Assembly (NCBI GenBank): GCA_014905635.1
Contig: JABVCE010000021.1
Span: 496,001-560,000 of the forward strand
Direction of reading: 5' to 3'
Source of the DNA: Scenedesmus sp. PABB004
Taxonomy: Eukaryota
DNA length: 64,000 nucleotides
The notes under the pieces were generated by a model. The model was not told the origin of the DNA. It searched no databases and saw only the letters and a list, made by a program, of their open reading frames with translations. Positions 46,674 to 58,297 of this stretch are shown piece after piece; the stretch's first letter is position 1; every line of letters begins with the position of its first letter. Made by a program: the position numbers and the translations under genes.

Positions 46674-48075
46674 ATGGCGCCGTCCCCCGGCCGCGGCGGC
46701 GTGACGTCCGTCAACTTTGCGCCGAGCGGCGGCGGCGCGAGAAAGGTGCAGACGACTGACGACATCATGCGAGCCATCGAGTCGACGCTGCCGCCCGACG
46801 CGCCGAGCCGCTACAAGCAGGAGGAGCTCAGCTCCCGCGTCATCGGCAGGCGCGGAGCGGCGTCGCGCCAAGCTGGCAACGCCCGCCTCCGGCGCGCCCG
46901 CGACGCCAGCTCCTGGCCGCCGCCAACCTGGCACCGCACCGCCCGCGCTGGCGCCGGCGCAGGATCATCGAGCATGAGTCGGCGTTTGGGGACAAGGCGC
47001 TGCCGCGCAGCCGGCTGCCCAAAGTCGACGCGGTGTGCGCGCGCGGCGGCGCACGCGCGCGGCCGAGCCCGGCGCGCTGCCGCCCGGCGCTGCCCGTGCT
47101 GCCGCCAACTCCCCCTACCCTGACCCGCCCGCCCCGCCCCGCCCCGCCCTGGCCTGCGCGCGCAGGCGATGCTGGACCGCTACCAGGCGGCGCGGCGCAA
47201 CGTGCTCGTGCTCGGCGCGATCCAGCAGGCCAGCAGCGCCGCACCCAGCCGCGCGGCGAGCCGCCCGGCGACGCACCGCAGCGGCAAGGGCAGCCACGGT
47301 GCGCGCGCGCGAGCGCGGCCCGCGCGTGGGAGCCGGCGCTCGACCCTCACCCTGCCGCCGCGCGCCGCGCGCCGCGCCAGCAGCCCCCAGCGCCGCGGGC
47401 GGCGACAGCGACGAGCACAGTGAGGACGGCGAGGAGGGCGGGCTGGCGAGGCTGCCCGGCGTCGGCGGGCACGAGGGCGGCGGGCTCAGCCCCGAGGCGT
47501 CGGGTGCGCGCTGCGCGCTGGCGCGGCGACCGCAGCGCCGGCGGGCGGCGCCCCTGCTGGTTCGCTGACGCGCCCGCTGCCGCTGTCCCCGTCGCCCGCG
47601 GCAGGCTATGCTGGCACCGAGGCCGGCTCCGCGGCGCTCAGCAGCCGCCGCATGCGGCACGCCGCCAGCGGCCGCAGCGCCGCGAGCAGCTTTGCGGGCA
47701 GCGCGTGCAGCGGCGCGCGCCTGCGCAAGCAGGGCAGCTCCGGCAGCTCGGGCAGCGGGCTCACCGGCACCACGACGCTGCGCAGCGAGGGCAGCCGCTT
47801 TACCCACCGCTCCATGTTCGGCCGCAAGGCGCCGCGCAAGTGCGGCGCCGGGCCGCCGGGGGTGGGCGAGCGCACCGCGCCGCGCCGCCGCGCCCAGCCG
47901 GCCGGCGGCCGCCGCGCGGCGCCGCAGGAAGCCGGCCAAGCCCAAACCCGGGCGCGTCGCGGCCGCGCTGGCGGAGCACGGCGGGCACGACGACTGGATG
48001 AGCCGCACGCTGCTGCGGCACTGCCTGGCCTCAATCATACAGGCGCGCCCGCGCTGCGGGGCGGCCGCCAGGCCA

Positions 48076-48131
<56 letters not shown>

Positions 48132-49459
48132 AGGGGGGCGGCAGCGGCGGCTGCGGGCGGGGTCGTCGGTGGTCCGCGGCGCAGAGGCGCGCACGCGCTG
48201 CCGCACGCGCGCGGCGCCGCGGCCCCCGCAGGCGCGCTGGCGCGGCTACGTGGTGCGCAAGCGCTGGGCGAGCCCCGACGCGCGCGCGGCGCTGGTCGAG
48301 GAGGAGAAGGCGCGCGCGGGCGCGGGCGCAGCGCACGCGGCGCGCCTCGCGGAGCTGCGGGCTGCCCTGGCCGCGCGCCAGCAGCGCCAGCTCGCAGCGG
48401 CCGCCGCGGCGGCGGTCGCGGCCGCGGCAGCGGAGGAGGGCGGCGGCGGCGGCACCAGCCCGCCAGCGGCGGGCGCGGCGGCCGCGGGCGCGGCGGCGGG
48501 CAGCTCGCCGGCCGCGGCGCCGGCCGAGGCGCCGGCTGCACGCGGCGCCGCGCCATGCGGTGGCCCGGTGGCCGCTCCGTCGCGCGCCGCGTCTGCTCGG
48601 CGGCAGCCGCCAGGCAGCCACGCACTGAGCGCCGCGGGCGGGCGGCGCCCCCGGTGGCCGCCGGCTGGCGCAGCGCCCGAGCGGCGCTCCTGCAGCTCTG
48701 ACAGCGGCAGCGACGGCGACTGGTCAGAGGAGGAGGAGGGGCTGCAGGACGTGGCAAGCCTCAAGTTCCGGCCGGCCACGCCGCCCCGGCCGCGCGGCCG
48801 GCCGCTGCCGGGCATGAGCCCCGCGCTGCGGCACCGCACGGCGGCCGCTGCCGCGGCCGCGACGGGGGCGCCGCCGCCGCCCGACCCGGCGGCTGAGGCG
48901 CTGCTGGCCGCGCTGTGGGCGGGCGGCGGCGGCAGCGACGCCAGCAAGCGCCTGGCAGAGGCGCGTGCGCGCCGGGGGAGCGGGGACTAAACTCCGCGCG
49001 GCGCACGCGGCGCACCCCTCACCCGCCCGCCGCCCGCCCCGCCCCGCGCAGCTGCGCCAGCGCCGCGCCCGCCGCGCGCCCGCGCCTGTCGCGCTGTCGG
49101 AGCCCGCGCTTGCCGCGGCGGCCGCGTCGGGGCTGCTGGCGAGCGGCGGCCGCAGCTCGGCGGCGGCGTCGGACGGCGAGGGCGCCGACGACGGGGACGG
49201 GGGCGGCGCCACGGCGTGCGCGCCGGGGCCGCTGCCGGCTGCCGTGGTGGAGCAGCTGCTGCTGTCACGATACAGCGAGAAGTTCACGCGAATGGGCGTG
49301 CCGGAGCGGCAGCCGGGGCGGCTCAGGTGGCTCCAGCAGCAGGCGGCGGCCAGGGCGGCGGCGGCCAAGGCGGCGGCGGCGGCCAAGGCGGCGGCGGCGG
49401 CGGGCGCGGCGCCGCGGCCGTCGCAGGCGGCGGCGGCGGGGACGGGCGCGCCGCGGTGA
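46674..49459 (+). CDS. Hypothetical IQ-motif (calmodulin-binding) low-complexity protein
   Basis: Spliced ASIIQ|ARWRGYVVRK fits IQxxxRGxxxR. Other exons are low-complexity, so the exon structure is approximate. Confidence 0.6.
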
Positions 49460-49605: not shown

Positions 49606-50578
49606 TCAGCGCGACAGGCCGTACTTGCGCATCAGCGCCGCCTCAAATTCGTCGTCATCGCTGTCCGCCGCCTCGGGCGCCGCCACGTGCGCGCGCACAA
49701 CCTCGAGCAGCGGCGGCACGTCGAGCGACGCGCGCGCGCCGGGCCCGCGCCAGCTGCCGGCGCTGCCGCGCGGGCCGGGCGAGCCGCGCGGGCCGGGCGA
49801 GGCGAGGGGGCCGGGCGAAGAGCGCGGCCCGTCGCCGCTGCCGCGCACGCCGCCGCGTCTGCGCGGCGAGCCGCTGTAAAACTCGGCGGCGCTGGCCGCG
49901 CCCGCGTCGCCGCTGTCGCTGCCGCCAGCGGGGCCGGCCTCGGCGGGGCCGGCGCCGCTCGCCGCGCCGCCGCCAGCGGCACCCGGCGCGGAGGGGTGCT
50001 GCGCCCTTGCCCCCCTGGCCACCGTCGACTCGGCACAGTGCAGCAGCGGCGGCGGCGGGGCCTCGCTGGTGCCAGCGTCCGCATCGCGCCCGGCGCCCCC
50101 GCCGCCGCCGCCGCCGGCGCCGCTGCTGGTGGTGCTGCTGCTGCTGCCGCTGCTCAGGGCGGCGGCGACGAGCCGCCCCTTGGCGCGCACGCTCGGCGCC
50201 GCAGCCGCGGGCGGCGCTGCCGGCTCCGAGCCCTGCTCTGCCGGGCGGGCGCAGCTGACCGCTGGGTGCGACGTGAAGGGGGGGCTGCTGCCAGACCGCG
50301 CCGGCGCCGCTGCCGGGGGCGGCCGCGCAGGGCTCGGCCCGCCAGCAGCCCCAGCTGCAGTCGCAGCCGCGCCGCCGGGCGTCTGCAAGGCCGCCGGCGG
50401 GGCCGCCGGCGGCGCCCCTGGAGAGGCGTCGGCGCCGGCCTGGGGCGCGCGCTCGCCGCCCGCGTGCAACAGCGACAGCTCGGCCTGCACGCCCGGGCTG
50501 CCGGCCGCGCCAGCGATGCCAGCAGGCGCCGCGCCTGCTTGCTCGGCGCTCGACTGGGGCGGCTCCGCAGCGGGCCCC

Positions 50579-50623
<45 letters not shown>

Positions 50624-52331
50624 GGCGGCGCCGCCGCCGTCTCCTCCTCCCCGCCACCGTCCGCTGCGGCCAGCCCCGCCGCCAGCTCGTGGGGGCCGGG
50701 CATGCCGGCGGCGCGCAGCTGCTGTTGCAGCTGCCGCAGCTGCGGCAGCGCGGGAGCGGCGGCGGCGCGGGTGAGCCTGGTGCCCTGGCCCGCGCGGTCG
50801 CAGCCCCCAGCGCGGGCGCCTGCACCGCGTGCGCGCACCTGCGCCCTGAGCCGGTCCACCTCGCCTTGCAGCGCCTGCGCCACCGGGTCCTGCCACGCCG
50901 GCAGCAGGGCCTGCCCCAGCTGGGCGAGCTGCTGCTGCTGCAGGGCCTCGGCGCCGCCGGGCGGGGAGCTCGCGTGCAGCGGCGCGCCGGCCGGCCTGCC
51001 GAGCCCGGCGCCGGCGGCGCCCGGGCTGGCGGCCAGGCCCGGGCTGCCCGGGCTGGCCACGTAGCGCACGCCTGCGATGCAGCCGCCCGCCGGCGCGCCC
51101 GCCGCGCCCACCTGCATGCGCGCCGCGTCGGCGGCGTAGCGCTGCGCGCCGAGGCTGTGCGCGTAGGGGCTCGCTGGCATGCGCTGCACCGCGTCGGTGG
51201 CCGCCCGCAGCGCGGCGTCAACGCCCGCGCCGCTCCCGTGCGGGCTGCGCGCGGCGCCGTCGTAGCTGCCCACGCTGGCCACCGAGCCGCGCAGCGCGCC
51301 GGGGCTGGCCGTCGCGGCCGCGCCGTCGGAGCCGGCCGCCGCCGACGCGGGCGTGCCGGGCGTGCGCGGGCGGCCCAGCCCCGGCTCTCCACCACCGCCT
51401 GCGCGCTGCGGCGAGCCCAAGCGCTCCAGCGCCTGCTGCAGCTGCCCCGAGTTGAGGTGCTGCAGCAGCGCCAGGTTGCTGAGCGCCACGCCCGCGCGCA
51501 CCGAGGGCGACACCGGCCCCTCCGCGGACGCGCGCCAGCCGGCGGGCTCGCCCCGGCCGCGGGCGACCTGACCGGCGAGCCCAGCCGCGGCGCCCAGTCG
51601 CCGCCGTCGGCGTCAAGGTCGGCGCCCGCACCGCGCCCGTTCCCGGCCGCTGTGCCGGGCGCGGGCTCGACCAGCAGCCGCTCGGCCAGCTCCACGCGCT
51701 GCAGCGCGGCGCCGGCGCCGCCGCCCGGCGCGTGCTGGCGCTGGCCGCTGTGCGGCCGCCAGGGCTGCAGGTCGGGGCTGCCATAGGGCCGCACCGGGGT
51801 GCTGGTGCGGGGCTCGGGCCACGCGCCGTCGTCACGCTCGCCGCCGCCCCGCGCCGCCCGCCCGGCAGCCTCGCCAGCCAGCGGCAGCGAGCGCCGTGCG
51901 GCGGGGGCGTCGGCGGGCGGCCGCAGGCGCGCGGCGTACGCGCCGGGCACGCTGGGCGCGCTGCTGCGCGCGGGCGCCAGCGCGCCGGGCGCCCGCCTGG
52001 CCGCGAGCCCGCTGTCACGGCCCCGCACGAGCACCGGGCTGTCGGCGGCGCTGCCCAGCCCCGGCAGCGCCAGCAGCGCGCCCCGGGGCTTGCCCAGGCG
52101 GCCGCCGGCGCCCCACGCGCCGCCGCCGCCTGCCTGGACGCCGAGCTGGCCGGGCAGTGGCTGCGGCTGCGACGCGCAGCGCGCCCACTCCGCGCGCACC
52201 AGGCCGCCGGGCGCCTGCGCCGCGATGCTCACGGCGGGGTCGAGGCTCGCCGTGAGGTGCAGCGCCGCGAGCTGCAGCTGGGAGCTGTCCCCTGGCACCA
52301 CCTCGTAGCACCGACTGACAGGGTCGCCTGG

Positions 52332-52379
<48 letters not shown>

Positions 52380-53108
52380 CGGCGCTGGTCAGCGGGCGCG
52401 GCAGCGGCACCCGCGAGGCCGCCTTCGCCCGCCCCGCCCCGCCCTCGCCGGCCGCGCCGCGCCGCGCACCCTCGGGGCAGAGCAGCAGCAGGAACGCGCC
52501 GCCGCCGTCCGCGCTGATGACGCGGTCAGCCAGGAGGCCGCTGAACGCAAAGCGCAGGCACGCCGCCGCCACGAGCGGGTGCAGCGGCGAGGCGGGGCCC
52601 TTCACCCACACGCCGACCAGCGGCGTGCTGTAGACCTGCGGGCGCGCCGCGGCGCAAGATGCGGCGCGTCAGCGCCGCGGCGACGGCGCGCCGCTCGAGC
52701 TGCCGCTGCGCCCGCCTCGCCGCACGCCGCGCGCGGGCGCACGTTGACGTCGGTCGCTTCGAGCGGCAGCAGGCTGCGCGCCTGGTCCATGCTCAGGAAC
52801 CCGCTCTGCGCCGGCAGGCGGCGGCGGCGTCAGGGCGCCGCGGCCACGGCGACGCAGGGCGCGGCTGCGTGCGCGCGGCCCGCGGAGCCCCCCGCTCCTC
52901 CCCCGGCCCAGGGGCCGCGCCTGCCAGGCGGGCATGGCGCCCGGCGTCAGCAGCGCCTCGGCCAGCGGCACGTGGCAGAGGCGCTTGGTGTAGAGGGGCG
53001 TCGCGAGCAGGCCACCGGCCGGCATCACCAGCGCGAGGCGCAGCGCCGCGCGCGCGCCGGGGCCGCCGCCGCCGCCCGCGCGCGCGCTCGCGGCGACCGC
53101 GTACAGCT

Positions 53109-53164
<56 letters not shown>

Positions 53165-53930
53165 CGTCAGCCGCGACGCCAGTGCGCGCGTCGCGCGAGG
53201 CGTGCATGCCGCCGCGCGCGGCGCGCCCACCTGCGCCACGCGCGCCGTGTCGCGCTGGTCGAGCTGCGCCTGCGCGACGCTGCGCAGGCCCGCCAGCCCG
53301 TCCTGCGGGTCCTCGCCCGAGAGCGGGCACGCCAGCTGCAGGCACTCGCCCGGCCGGGCGCTCAGCGGGTCGAGCTCCTGCACCAGCGCGGTGACCTGGT
53401 GCGTGGCCGTCACCGACAGCCCGAGCGCGAGCGGCACCGCGGCGGCGCCGCGCTCCGCCGCGCGCGACACCGCGCCCAGCGCGGACGCCGCCACCTGGAC
53501 GCGCGGCACGAAGCCCTGCGGCGCCGCGCGCGGGCGCGGCGGCCTGGGCGCGGGGGAGGTGTGGCGGGCGCGCGCGGGAGCTGCGCGCCAACGCAGGTGT
53601 GTCGAGGCATGTCGGGGCGCGCGCGCGGCGGCGGACCCCTGTGCACACCTGCAGGCCGATGAGCACCTGCGCGCCCGCGGGCGTGCGGTCCCACAGGTAG
53701 CGCCGGCTCGATGGGAAGCGCAGGCTGCGGCCGCCGCCGCCGGCGCCGAGCAGCTGCGCGTGCGGCGGCGCGCCGCCACCGCTGGAGGCCGGCGCGCTGC
53801 TCGCGCTGCTCGCGACGCTCGCGCGCAGCGCGCCGGCCCCGCCGCCGCCCGGGCGCGCCCCCGGCGGCGACGGCGGCGCGGGGGCCGCCTTGTCGCGCGT
53901 CGCCGGCGACGGGTAGAACGCCGACTGCAT
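49606..53930 (-). CDS. STIL (SCL-interrupting locus)-like protein
   Basis: LRFPSSRRYLWDRTPAG; GFLSMDQARSLLPLEATD|..STPLVGVWVKG..HPLVAAACLRFAFS..DRV..GAFLLLL matches the STIL N-terminal domain core as recalled; central coiled coil; C-terminal LMRKYGL. Confidence 0.72.
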
Positions 53931-55479: not shown

Positions 55480-58297
55480 TCAGCAGATGAGGTCGAGCCG
55501 GGCGTACGGCATGAGCGCCCGCAGGCGCGCCTGCCCCGCCTCGCCGCACGCGTGCGCGAGCGTGGCGGGCGTGCAGGAGAGGCTCAGCAGGCGCAGGCTC
55601 GTGAAGTGCTGGTATGCCTCCATCACGGGCCCCAGCGCGGTGAGGTCGTCCGAGGACCAGCTCAGGTACCTGAGCCCCCGCAGCGACGCAAGCGCGGCGA
55701 GGCCGGCCTGGCTGAGCGCGCGGTTGTGGGGCGCGAGCACGCTCAGCTCCTGCAGGCAAGTCAGGCGGGAGACCGCCGACACGCCGTCGTCGGCGAGCCC
55801 CGCCACGTGCGCGAGCCGCAGGCGCTGCAGCCTCGGCAGCGACAGCGTCAGCGCCTGGGCGCGCGCGGGGACGGCGGCGCGGGCGCTCAGGCTCGCGCGG
55901 GCGCGCCGCCGCCGGCCGCCGGCCGCCGGGGAGCCGCGACGTCCCCCGCTGCCCCTCGCCGCACCTCGAGCTGCGGCGAGCGCAGCCTGCAGGAGTCCAG
56001 CTTCAGCGACGCCAACTGCCCCAGCACGCGCGCGGCGTCGGCCCTGCGCGGCGGCGCCGCGCCCGGCGCCGCGGCGCGGCTGCTGCCGGCGCCGCCGGCC
56101 GCCGCGGGCGGGCCCGCGGGCGGGCCGCGGCCGCGCCGCCGCCGGCCCCGAGGCAGAGCACGTGCGGCTGGGGCGGGCCGAGGCCCAGCGCGGCCGTCGG
56201 CGGCGCGGGGGGCGCGCCGGGCTGCGCCGCGCGCGGCGCGCAGGGCGTGGGCGGCCCGCCGCCGCTGCCCGCGAGCGCAATTGCGGGCGTGGTGATGTCG
56301 ACGTGTCGCAGCTCCAGGTTGGTCAAGCCGCAGGGCAGGTGCAGCAGGTCGAGGGCCACGGGCTGCGCGTTGGCGCCAAACGGCTCGGCGCTCACGGACA
56401 GGCTGCGGAGGCTGCTGAAGCGCGCCAGGCCGGCGAGGCCCTCCGACGTGACGTCGCTGCTGCCGAGGCTCAGCCGCAGCGCGCGCAGGCGCTGGCAGCC
56501 CTGCGCGAGCGCGGCCGCCGAGCCGGCGTCCAGGGGCACCGCGATAGAGCTCTCGCCCATGCGCCGCTGCTCCGGGAAGTACGCGTGCTGCTTAGTCAGG
56601 TGCAGCACCTGCCCGCCGGCCGGCACGCGGCGGGCGAGGGCGGACGGGCGGGCGGCGAGCGGTCGGCGGTCAGCGCGCCGCGCGCGTGCGTGCCAGGGTC
56701 GAGCCACCACGCATCCGCGCGTCTGCGCTGCCGCGGCTGCCGCCGCACGCGCCGGGAACGCGCCTGCAGGTTTGCGAGGTGCGCGAGGTCTGCGAGGCGC
56801 AGCGTGAGCACCGCGTCGGCGTTGCTGTAGACGCTCATGCGCAGGTCGCTCAGCGCGGTCAGCGCGGCGAGCGGCTCGATGAGGCTCGTCGCCGGGTCGC
56901 GCGCGAGGCGCACGCAGCCCAGGTCCAGGCGCACGAGCCGCGCCTGTGCCGGCGGCGGCGGCGGCGGCGGCGGCGCGGGAGCAGACCAGGGGCGGCGTGT
57001 GCACGCGGGGGGCGGGAGGGGGGGGGCGTGTGCGCGCGGGGGCGGCATGCGCGCGGTGGGGGCGGGGGCGGCGGCGGGCAGCGGGCGGCGGCGGGGCCCA
57101 CCGTCAGGTAGAAGCGCGCCGTGCGCAGCAGGCCGTTGAGCTTGTCGGTCCACCGAAACTTCATCGAAAGGTCGCCCGCGACGTCGCGCAGCTGCTGCAT
57201 CGCGCCCTCGGCCAGCTCGTAGTCCATGCCCTGCGCGGCACGTGCGGCCGGCCTGTCGCGCGCCGCCGCCTGCGCCGCCACTCGCGCCGCCGCGCGCGCC
57301 GCGCACCAGGTGCAGGTCGTGGAGGCTCGGGCAGGCGGCGAAGCAGGCCGCGGTCGCGGCGTCCATGCAGGTGTCGAGGCCGTGGACGGAGAGCGAGCCG
57401 AGGCGCGGCAGCTGGCCGGTCAGGCGCGTCAGGCCGGCGGCAGTGAGGCGGGACGCGCGGAACTCGAGCACCTGCAGGTTGGCCAGCCGCCCCAGCGCGG
57501 CGACCTCCGCGTCGCCGAGGCCGCAGCGCGCCTCCGGCAGCACGCGCAGCGCCTCGAGGCCGGGGCAGGCGCGCGCGAGGCCGGCGAGCAGGCGCTCGAC
57601 CGCGGCGGGCGTGAAGGTGCCGCCGGTGAGCGTGAGCGCGCGCAGCTGCGAGAGCTCCGCCAGGTCGTCGGCCGAGTCGAGCCACAGCTCAAAGCCCTCG
57701 CTCAGCTCCAGGTGCAGGTCCTGCGGCGCGGCGGCGGGTGCGGCGCGGCGCCGTGTGACGGACAGGCGGCGCGGCCGCCGCCGCACGCCCCAGGTGCCCG
57801 CCGCCGCGCGCGGCGGGCACCTGGATGCTGTCGAGCTGGCGGGCGAGCTCCGCGAGCGCGCCGCCGAACGAGCCGCGCGGCACCGCCGACGACACGTGCG
57901 CCTTGCAGGACGACAGCGCGGGCGTGAGGCGGCGCAGCTGCGCCACCTTGGAGGCCCAGGCCTGGGCGCAGGGGTTGACGTCCAGCTCGAGCGCGCTCAC
58001 GCCGCCGGGCATCGCCGTCTGCCAGCTCCTGCACACCAGCGACGCCGCGCCGACGTGGCCCGGGACCGGCCCGATGCGGCCGCCGATGGCCGCCAGGATC
58101 TCTGCGGCGCGGCGCGGCGCACGCCGCGCTCGGCGGCAGCGGCGCACGCCGCGCTGCCACCTGGCGGCGCGGCGCGGCGCTGCATGGGGCCCCGGCAGCG
58201 GCCCCCCGGGACGCAGCGAGGCCCCACCTGGTGGCAGGTCGCCCCAGGGCGCGGCGTCCGCGTCCGTCATGGGCGGCAGCTCGATTTCGGGGTCCAT
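55480..58297 (-). CDS. F-box / leucine-rich-repeat (RNI-like) protein
   Basis: F-box PWGDLPP|EILAAI...ASLVCRSW, followed by many LxxLxxLxL repeats (CPGLEALRV, LANLQVLEF, LPRLGSLSV, CQRLRALRL, LTCLQELSV). Confidence 0.85.

Follow-up and report, generated by a model that had tools for sequence, protein, structure and literature searches.

STIL is the human microcephaly protein that starts centriole assembly. Animal STIL contains an N-terminal domain (Pfam STIL_N, PF15253; Trichoplax structures 5OI9/5OID), a proline motif (PRxxPxP) that binds CPAP/SAS-4, a coiled coil (CC_STIL, PF25775) and a C-terminal STAN region, which consists of two KY/RY halves sharing one register. In the paper describing its structure, the N-terminal domain was placed in metazoans and choanoflagellates (PMC5928214), and the C-terminal TIM motif is common to STIL, Ana2 (Drosophila) and SAS-5 (C. 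elegans) (PMC4113102). The working core of Ana2 and SAS-5 is a short coiled coil plus a STAN-type C-terminal motif (PMC5095913). How centriole initiation proceeds in eukaryotes without PLK4, of which there are many, is an open question in print (PMC4888484; 10.1101/2020.12.21.423647). Here we analyzed a 64,000-nucleotide stretch (the window) of the green alga Scenedesmus sp. PABB004 (contig JABVCE010000021.1, positions 496,001 to 560,000), which contains a spliced STIL-orthologous gene. The gene runs on the minus strand from the ATG at 53930 to the TGA at 49606; the encoded protein is about 1,130–1,200 residues in length, depending on the junction chosen near 51550.

A preliminary description made from the sequence alone had proposed STIL homology for this locus. 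All the motifs that it quoted were located on the minus strand inside 49606..53930: the FPSSRRYLWDRTPAG motif at 53717-53673, the GFLSMDQARSLLPLEATD motif at 52802-52749, PLVGVWVKG at 52623-52597, AACLRFAFS at 52566-52540, FLLLL at 52494-52480 and, at the protein's C-terminus, MRKYGL followed by the TGA (stop at 49606). The proposed homology was borne out by profile, alignment and fold. Exon 5 (52470..52635), 55 residues in length, encodes the Pfam STIL_N core; it matched the profile with 40.3 bits (E 2.4e-10), above the gathering cut-off of 27, and the other seven of the eight segments scanned with Pfam gave no match to a STIL family. In the whole genome, the window locus is the single STIL_N locus (39.4 bits in the genome search). 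The spliced model is 72% identical to the Tetradesmus protein over 273 columns, and it aligned with an animal-type STIL at a pairwise E of 3.6e-26.

The fold was analyzed with the Tetradesmus domain as a stand-in for the window protein. Its sole sequence match in the PDB is the Trichoplax STIL N-domain (5OI9/5OID), with E values of 2.3e-11 in the single-sequence and 1.9e-32 in the profile comparison. Based on a 76-row alignment that contained animal STILs, AlphaFold produced a model with a pLDDT of 93.8; single-sequence prediction was unsuccessful (pLDDT 38.9). The model superimposed on the two-subdomain, MPN-like fold of 5OI9 with a Z-score of 25.1 and an rmsd of 3.0 over 263 residues (Foldseek E 1.8e-19). 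The next structural matches were ATG7 N-domains (Z ~9; 9.2) and MPN/JAMM domains (Z 5–7), which were already reported as structural relatives of the STIL N-domain (PMC5928214). These are far weaker than the STIL match, with 6–12% identity and no sequence match; an identity as ATG7 N-terminal domain or JAMM protease was rejected because STIL matches far better in both sequence and structure.

In a tree of 37 N-domains, whose deep branches are without resolution, the window protein grouped with Tetradesmus, Hariotina and Monoraphidium with 100/100 support (Sphaeropleales), inside a Chlorophyceae group supported by 99/97. On this placement, transfer or contamination from an animal was rejected. 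Taken together, sequence, fold and tree identify the gene as the single, vertically inherited STIL orthologue of this alga.

The preliminary description had also suggested a deeper origin of the module; this holds, and it is general rather than particular to this alga. With E values up to 0.001, a search with the Tetradesmus domain gave 421 cluster representatives, the best 150 of which were listed; the organism was obtained for 14 of the 30 proteins looked up. Those 14 are the algae Astrephomene, Haematococcus, Chlamydomonas eustigma, Parachlorella, Apatococcus, Ulva, Hariotina, Chara, Micractinium and Volvox carteri, as well as the ciliate Blepharisma, the malawimonad Gefionella, Chromosphaera and the animal Saccoglossus. 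Other searches added Monoraphidium, Edaphochlamys, Trebouxia, Pleodorina and the oomycetes Phytophthora and Peronosclerospora. Parachlorella, Micractinium and Peronosclerospora are not known to have flagellate cells. No Chlamydomonas reinhardtii record was among the named matches; two short, distant metagenome loci among 90 matched stretches were not used.

The chlorophyte proteins of Tetradesmus obliquus (P0001), Monoraphidium neglectum (P0019), Volvox carteri (P0065), Chlamydomonas eustigma (P0036) and Hariotina (P0011) are direct orthologues. They have intron positions in common with the window gene and, where the model is complete, carry the same C-terminal motif; apart from their linkers they do not differ in kind, and what is on record for them are database names. 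Several relatives were labelled beforehand in NCBI/UniRef, e.g. as 'STIL N-terminal domain-containing protein', and the Monoraphidium neglectum protein as 'putative SCL-interrupting locus like protein'. As orthologues extend from chlorophytes and Chara to oomycetes, a ciliate and a malawimonad, and a number of them bear automatic annotations, this alga is not special; the gene is ordinary for its lineage, database-annotated in relatives and apparently unstudied. In the public models of two relatives, STIL is joined to a subtilase (Hariotina, P0011) or to a Rieske oxygenase (Edaphochlamys, P0025), most likely through the merging of neighbouring genes.

In print, STIL is among the basal-body genes of Stentor, where, during the production of basal bodies, SAS6 is co-expressed with it (PMC9371601), among the flagellar orthogroups of fungi (PMC13358043), and in a ciliary phylogenetic-profile cluster (PMC10425847 supplement). 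The STIL row of that 2023 profiling table holds no Chlamydomonas or Trypanosoma identifier (PMC10425847 supplement), and the paper terms the core structural components universal (PMC10425847). The retrieved text of a Chlamydomonas basal-body review mentions STIL 0 times and reports PLK4 as absent from Chlamydomonas (PMC4888484); PLK4 was not found outside opisthokonts in a further study, whose retrieved passages do not mention STIL (10.1101/2020.12.21.423647). The passages retrieved from PMC9014216, PMC6070874, PMC8705618, PMC5839779 and PMC13406575 hold nothing on an algal STIL, and a full-text literature search, with subscription papers on centriole evolution outside its reach, gave no description of a green-algal one.

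Like animal STIL, the window protein carries an N-domain, a proline motif, a coiled coil and a C-terminal KY motif in this order, and the two are similar in length. The C-terminal motif (49615..49701, minus strand) is a candidate half-STAN and a candidate SAS-6 site, based on relatives, profiles and a complex model. Its parts are a hydrophobic-Arg element, a run rich in Ser and acidic residues, and a helix whose last residues are KY(G). A first count gave the motif in 19 of 36 long non-animal homologues, and a second, with proteins added and a wider end window, in 26 of 46; a profile built without the window protein recovered the window motif with an E of 7.6e-6 among 21 targets. In hhalign comparisons with animal STAN, the second half scored 21% over 9 columns and the first half 18% over 33 columns, in register. 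When 83 windows of the animal STIL alignment were compared, the six best scores all fell on STAN, three per half, at 2–7%. As judged from these comparisons, the homology to animal STAN is only suggestive.

The preliminary description had compared MRKYGL with the MKRYGL at the end of STAN, which belongs to the second half. A conserved C-terminal motif is indeed present, but the KYG motif more likely corresponds to the first half, although the statistics are not decisive. This assignment is favoured because a P[RKH][ILV]xY element stands 27–32 residues ahead of the first KY in four of nine animals, and 17 of 20 non-animal proteins have a like element 22–33 residues ahead of KY. It is also favoured because second-half-like sequence lies downstream of the acidic run in Trebouxia and Chara. 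Such sequence scored against the animal profile with iE 0.003 in Chara, 8.5e-6 in Chromosphaera and, weakly, 0.05 in Trebouxia, for which the score fell to 0.33 with a shorter profile; reversed controls gave 0.5 or worse. The last 57 residues of Trebouxia P0199/P0200 continue past KYG into the second-half-like sequence. Residues ~2040–2126 and the C-terminus of Chara braunii P0101 show an acidic run, second-STAN-half sequence and, by eye, a TIM-like tail. Because the STIL of this streptophyte retains these parts, a tail longer than that of the window protein may be older than the plant–animal split.

Different from animal STIL, the window protein has one KY motif instead of two, an acidic run where animals have Ser, and no TIM tail; it stops four residues after KY, so there is no room for TIM. 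A TIM profile found nothing in 47 targets, but it also missed the TIM-like tail visible in Chromosphaera. By their numbering, Ser1108 and Ser1116 of STIL presumably lie in the second STAN half, the part without a counterpart in the window protein. Phosphorylation of these sites by PLK4 licenses STIL–SAS-6 binding (PMC4477857). We considered whether Asp replaces the animal Ser as a phosphomimic at −9 from K (Asp in 13 and Ser in 6 of 26 tails); this idea was rejected as biased by the acid-rich selection rule, and S1116D failed to mimic phosphorylation in human cells (PMC4477857). S/T-x-x-D/E sites were present in 24 of 26 tails, as expected anyway in segments chosen for acidity, and the window protein contains five S/T-P-x-K/R sites, compared to a shuffled mean of 1.2 and maximum of 6.

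The proline motif PR-x6-P-[HFY] (51774..51812, minus strand) emerged from the chlorophyte comparison as a candidate counterpart of the CPAP/SAS-4-binding PRxxPxP. It lies where animals carry that motif, with a longer spacing. The pattern was picked post hoc, after the sequences had been inspected; of 20 chlorophyte proteins, 10 carry it, the window protein among them, vs 0.78 expected from shuffles. The central coiled coil, about 25 residues in length (50716..50889, minus strand), is split by an in-frame 99-nt intron (50838-50740); its heptad pattern lies at residue 814 of 1201. Among 25 inspected chlorophyte proteins, 11 besides the window protein had matching segments, and in chlorophyte orthologues the coiled coil takes the same relative position (0.42–0.71 of the length). 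Between the proline motif and the coiled coil is a block of 30 residues (51427..51516, minus strand) that is conserved in the Hariotina orthologue (58% over 55 columns, pairwise E 5e-11); it gave no family match.

Possible partners were searched for in the genome. Both SAS-6 and SAS-4 have genes there, with open exons. Plk4_PB1 and POLO_box gave no match in a genome search without a positive control, a weak negative for a PLK4-like kinase. The central coiled coil of the preliminary description is present and recurs in chlorophytes; a PLK4-binding type was not borne out, there being neither a CC_STIL nor a polo-box match. An IFT46 gene is present, and DHC_N1 (dynein) matches lie on four contigs, i.e. 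the flagellar kit is present in the genome. These genes back the earlier suggestion of a flagellate stage better than STIL does; STIL adds little because it is also found in taxa not known to have flagellate cells.

We modelled the last 42 residues of the window protein with two copies of an 86-residue SAS-6 exon (the coiled-coil end), using no alignment. The complex scored 0.43, compared to 0.01 for the best of three controls, with contacts agreeing at least 61% and partner pLDDT at least 56, and was rated as weak support. On calibration, 51 of 78 solved pairs attained the mark, as did 2 of 108 mismatched ones; passes at 0.60 or under comprised only 5 of the 78 solved pairs and all four passing mismatches.

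STIL contacts CEP85 through Leu and Arg residues of its N-domain (PMC5928214). As in animals, the Arg is kept in the window protein and in Tetradesmus, whereas the Leu is replaced by Ala; the patch is not kept in other algae. The best genomic match to CC4_CEP85 reached 26.4 bits, vs a cut-off of 27.3, over profile positions 5–71 of 85. It lies in a long coiled-coil protein (L008 1501-1701; G000:C46:796153-796353), whose identity as CEP85 was rejected since the match is below the cut-off and probably generic. Its later match to PDB 5OI7 is circular, because the protein was picked by the same profile.

The protein belongs to the STIL_N family and probably works like STIL, Ana2 and SAS-5. Because TIM is absent and STAN unproven, we do not file it as a canonical member. 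By description, the core of Ana2 and SAS-5 resembles that of the alga; the alga keeps the N-domain that insects lost (PMC5928214), and both Ana2 and SAS-5 work with the PLK4/ZYG-1 kinase, unlike the case proposed here. In our best reading, the STIL orthologue would be a cartwheel adaptor working without PLK4. It would oligomerise through the coiled coil, its tail would bind SAS-6, as the complex model weakly suggests, and the proline motif may bind SAS-4, contacts that together would seed the cartwheel. With the animal control parts absent or changed (TIM and the second STAN half absent, the coiled coil divergent, PLK4 undetected), timing would depend on something else, for instance expression or a different kinase, for which the motifs hint at CDK or CK2. 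Control without PLK4 is a conjecture.

A wider scenario is conceivable, but we consider it rather doubtful. Outside opisthokonts, STIL would work without PLK4, its first STAN half, in which an acidic Ser-rich run replaces the animal sequence, binding the coiled-coil end of SAS-6 constitutively or under CK2/CDK. Chlorophyceans would have cut the protein down to that half, STIL would start basal-body duplication in Chlamydomonas-type cells, a role so far overlooked, and control by PLK4 would have been added later to an older STIL–SAS-6 contact.

With a recognisable trimmed-tail STIL in volvocine algae, the gene and two short motifs are testable in the best basal-body model organism, and algae could show how centrioles start without the kinase that switches STIL on in animals.

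Several observations weigh against reading the protein as a cartwheel adaptor of STIL type. An ESM Atlas feature search put glycosyl hydrolase 38 C-terminal clusters first (top rank 0.93, 156 shared features), an identity that was rejected against the Pfam, PDB and fold results. The exact PRxxPxP spacing is absent from the window protein, and the Hariotina orthologue is without the variant motif. The coiled coil gave no Pfam CC_STIL match when the window exons and algal orthologues were scanned, and a 13-sequence animal coiled-coil profile, insensitive at this distance with its 29 columns, found none of 47 targets under iE 0.4. By the selection rule, 20 of the 46 long homologues are without the C-terminal motif, some of them visibly partial or fused models; animal STAN profiles miss the window motif, and its hhalign probabilities are only 1–21%. 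The complex score of 0.43 falls in a range that is more often wrong than right, and peptides are outside the calibration. The frame change near 51550 (see below) could be a real lesion, and the role itself is inferred.

A true STIL descendant could have taken another job, non-centriolar or non-initiating, e.g. as a scaffold for another coiled-coil partner, with algal cartwheels built from SAS-6 and BLD10 alone. The divergence or absence of the animal interaction motifs would fit, as would the orthologues in Parachlorella, Micractinium and Peronosclerospora, which are not known to have flagellate cells. In vitro, cartwheels form by self-organisation of SAS-6 and Bld10 (PMC5839779), and the silence on STIL in the retrieved text of the Chlamydomonas review (PMC4888484) points the same way. 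However, four modules are retained in the animal order, the SAS-6 complex model passed weakly, Stentor STIL is co-expressed with SAS6 (PMC9371601) and STIL sits in the ciliary profile cluster (PMC10425847 supplement); we regard such a change of job as unlikely. At the other extreme, the protein may be a canonical, animal-like STIL, in which a divergent PLK4-like kinase is bound by the coiled coil and phosphorylates the tail. The constant relative place of the coiled coil, the serines ahead of KY in most chlorophyte orthologues and the missing positive control of the polo-box searches speak for it. Set against the lack of any Plk4_PB1, POLO_box or CC_STIL match and the reported absence of PLK4 from Chlamydomonas (PMC4888484) and outside opisthokonts (10.1101/2020.12.21.423647), it is hardly to be expected. 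The adaptor working without PLK4 is the reading that we retain.

The coding frame changes between ~51572 and ~51520 (minus strand) without a convincing intron, which the preliminary description did not mention. Down to 51567, the motifs shared with Monoraphidium and Hariotina are read in the upstream frame, and from 51516 on in the other one; likewise, a codon model trained on the STIL gene preferred the upstream frame as far as ~51570-51545 and the downstream one thereafter. In-phase splice sites around the change are only weak, or would delete conserved motifs. A 227-nt intron (51794-51568) in the first gene model was dropped because it removed motifs common to Monoraphidium and Hariotina. 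The cause would be a base absent from the assembly, a weak intron of 104 or 128 nt that ends at 51568 and restores the frame, or a freshly broken copy. In the last case a genuine one-base frameshift near 51550 would remove the coiled coil and the C-terminal motif; the codon-model switch, the shared motifs on both sides and the poor splice sites would all be expected from it. Yet every downstream motif is intact and conserved, the remaining six introns are regular, SAS-6, SAS-4, IFT46 and dynein genes are present in the genome, and the 104- or 128-nt intron would also restore the frame. The site also contains short G runs, a usual place for assembly slips. A recently broken copy is very unlikely.

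The remaining exons, all on the minus strand, are as follows. Exon 1 (53649..53930) contains the start, the SA[FY][FY] motif, a low-complexity linker and the beginning of the N-terminal domain. Many STILs of algae and protists, and some of invertebrates, conserve the SA[FY][FY] motif (53924-53910), which lies ahead of the folded domain. Exon 2 (53231..53515) encodes the first MPN-like subdomain; exon 3 (52921..53106) continues the domain without gaps in relatives and is followed by a GC-AG intron. Exon 4 (52743..52805) carries the GFLSMDQAR block, and a relative's unspliced frame diverges at the same place. Exon 6 (51549..52327, 3' limit uncertain) comprises the end of the N-terminal domain (to ~52290) and a linker; the last exon (49606..50739) is mostly of low complexity (poly-Q, Ala/Gly/Pro/Ser). 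The six introns with clear ends are 99–142 nt in length, five GT-AG and one GC-AG; splicing them leaves an open frame throughout the N-terminal domain, and relatives confirm the junctions, their unspliced frames being interrupted at matching positions. By eye, GC donors also occur in the SAS-6 (L002 ~1825) and SAS-4 (L003 ~1687) genes; with that of STIL intron 3, GC-AG introns may be common in this genome.

Upstream of the STIL gene, a minus-strand neighbour (55480-56322) showed a weak LRR_14 match (E 0.0096, below cut-off). On the other side, a plus-strand neighbour (47100-49459) lies tail-to-tail with STIL, ending 147 bases from its stop; four frames scanned gave no Pfam match at E 0.01, and an IQ-like segment could be seen by eye near 48150-48200.

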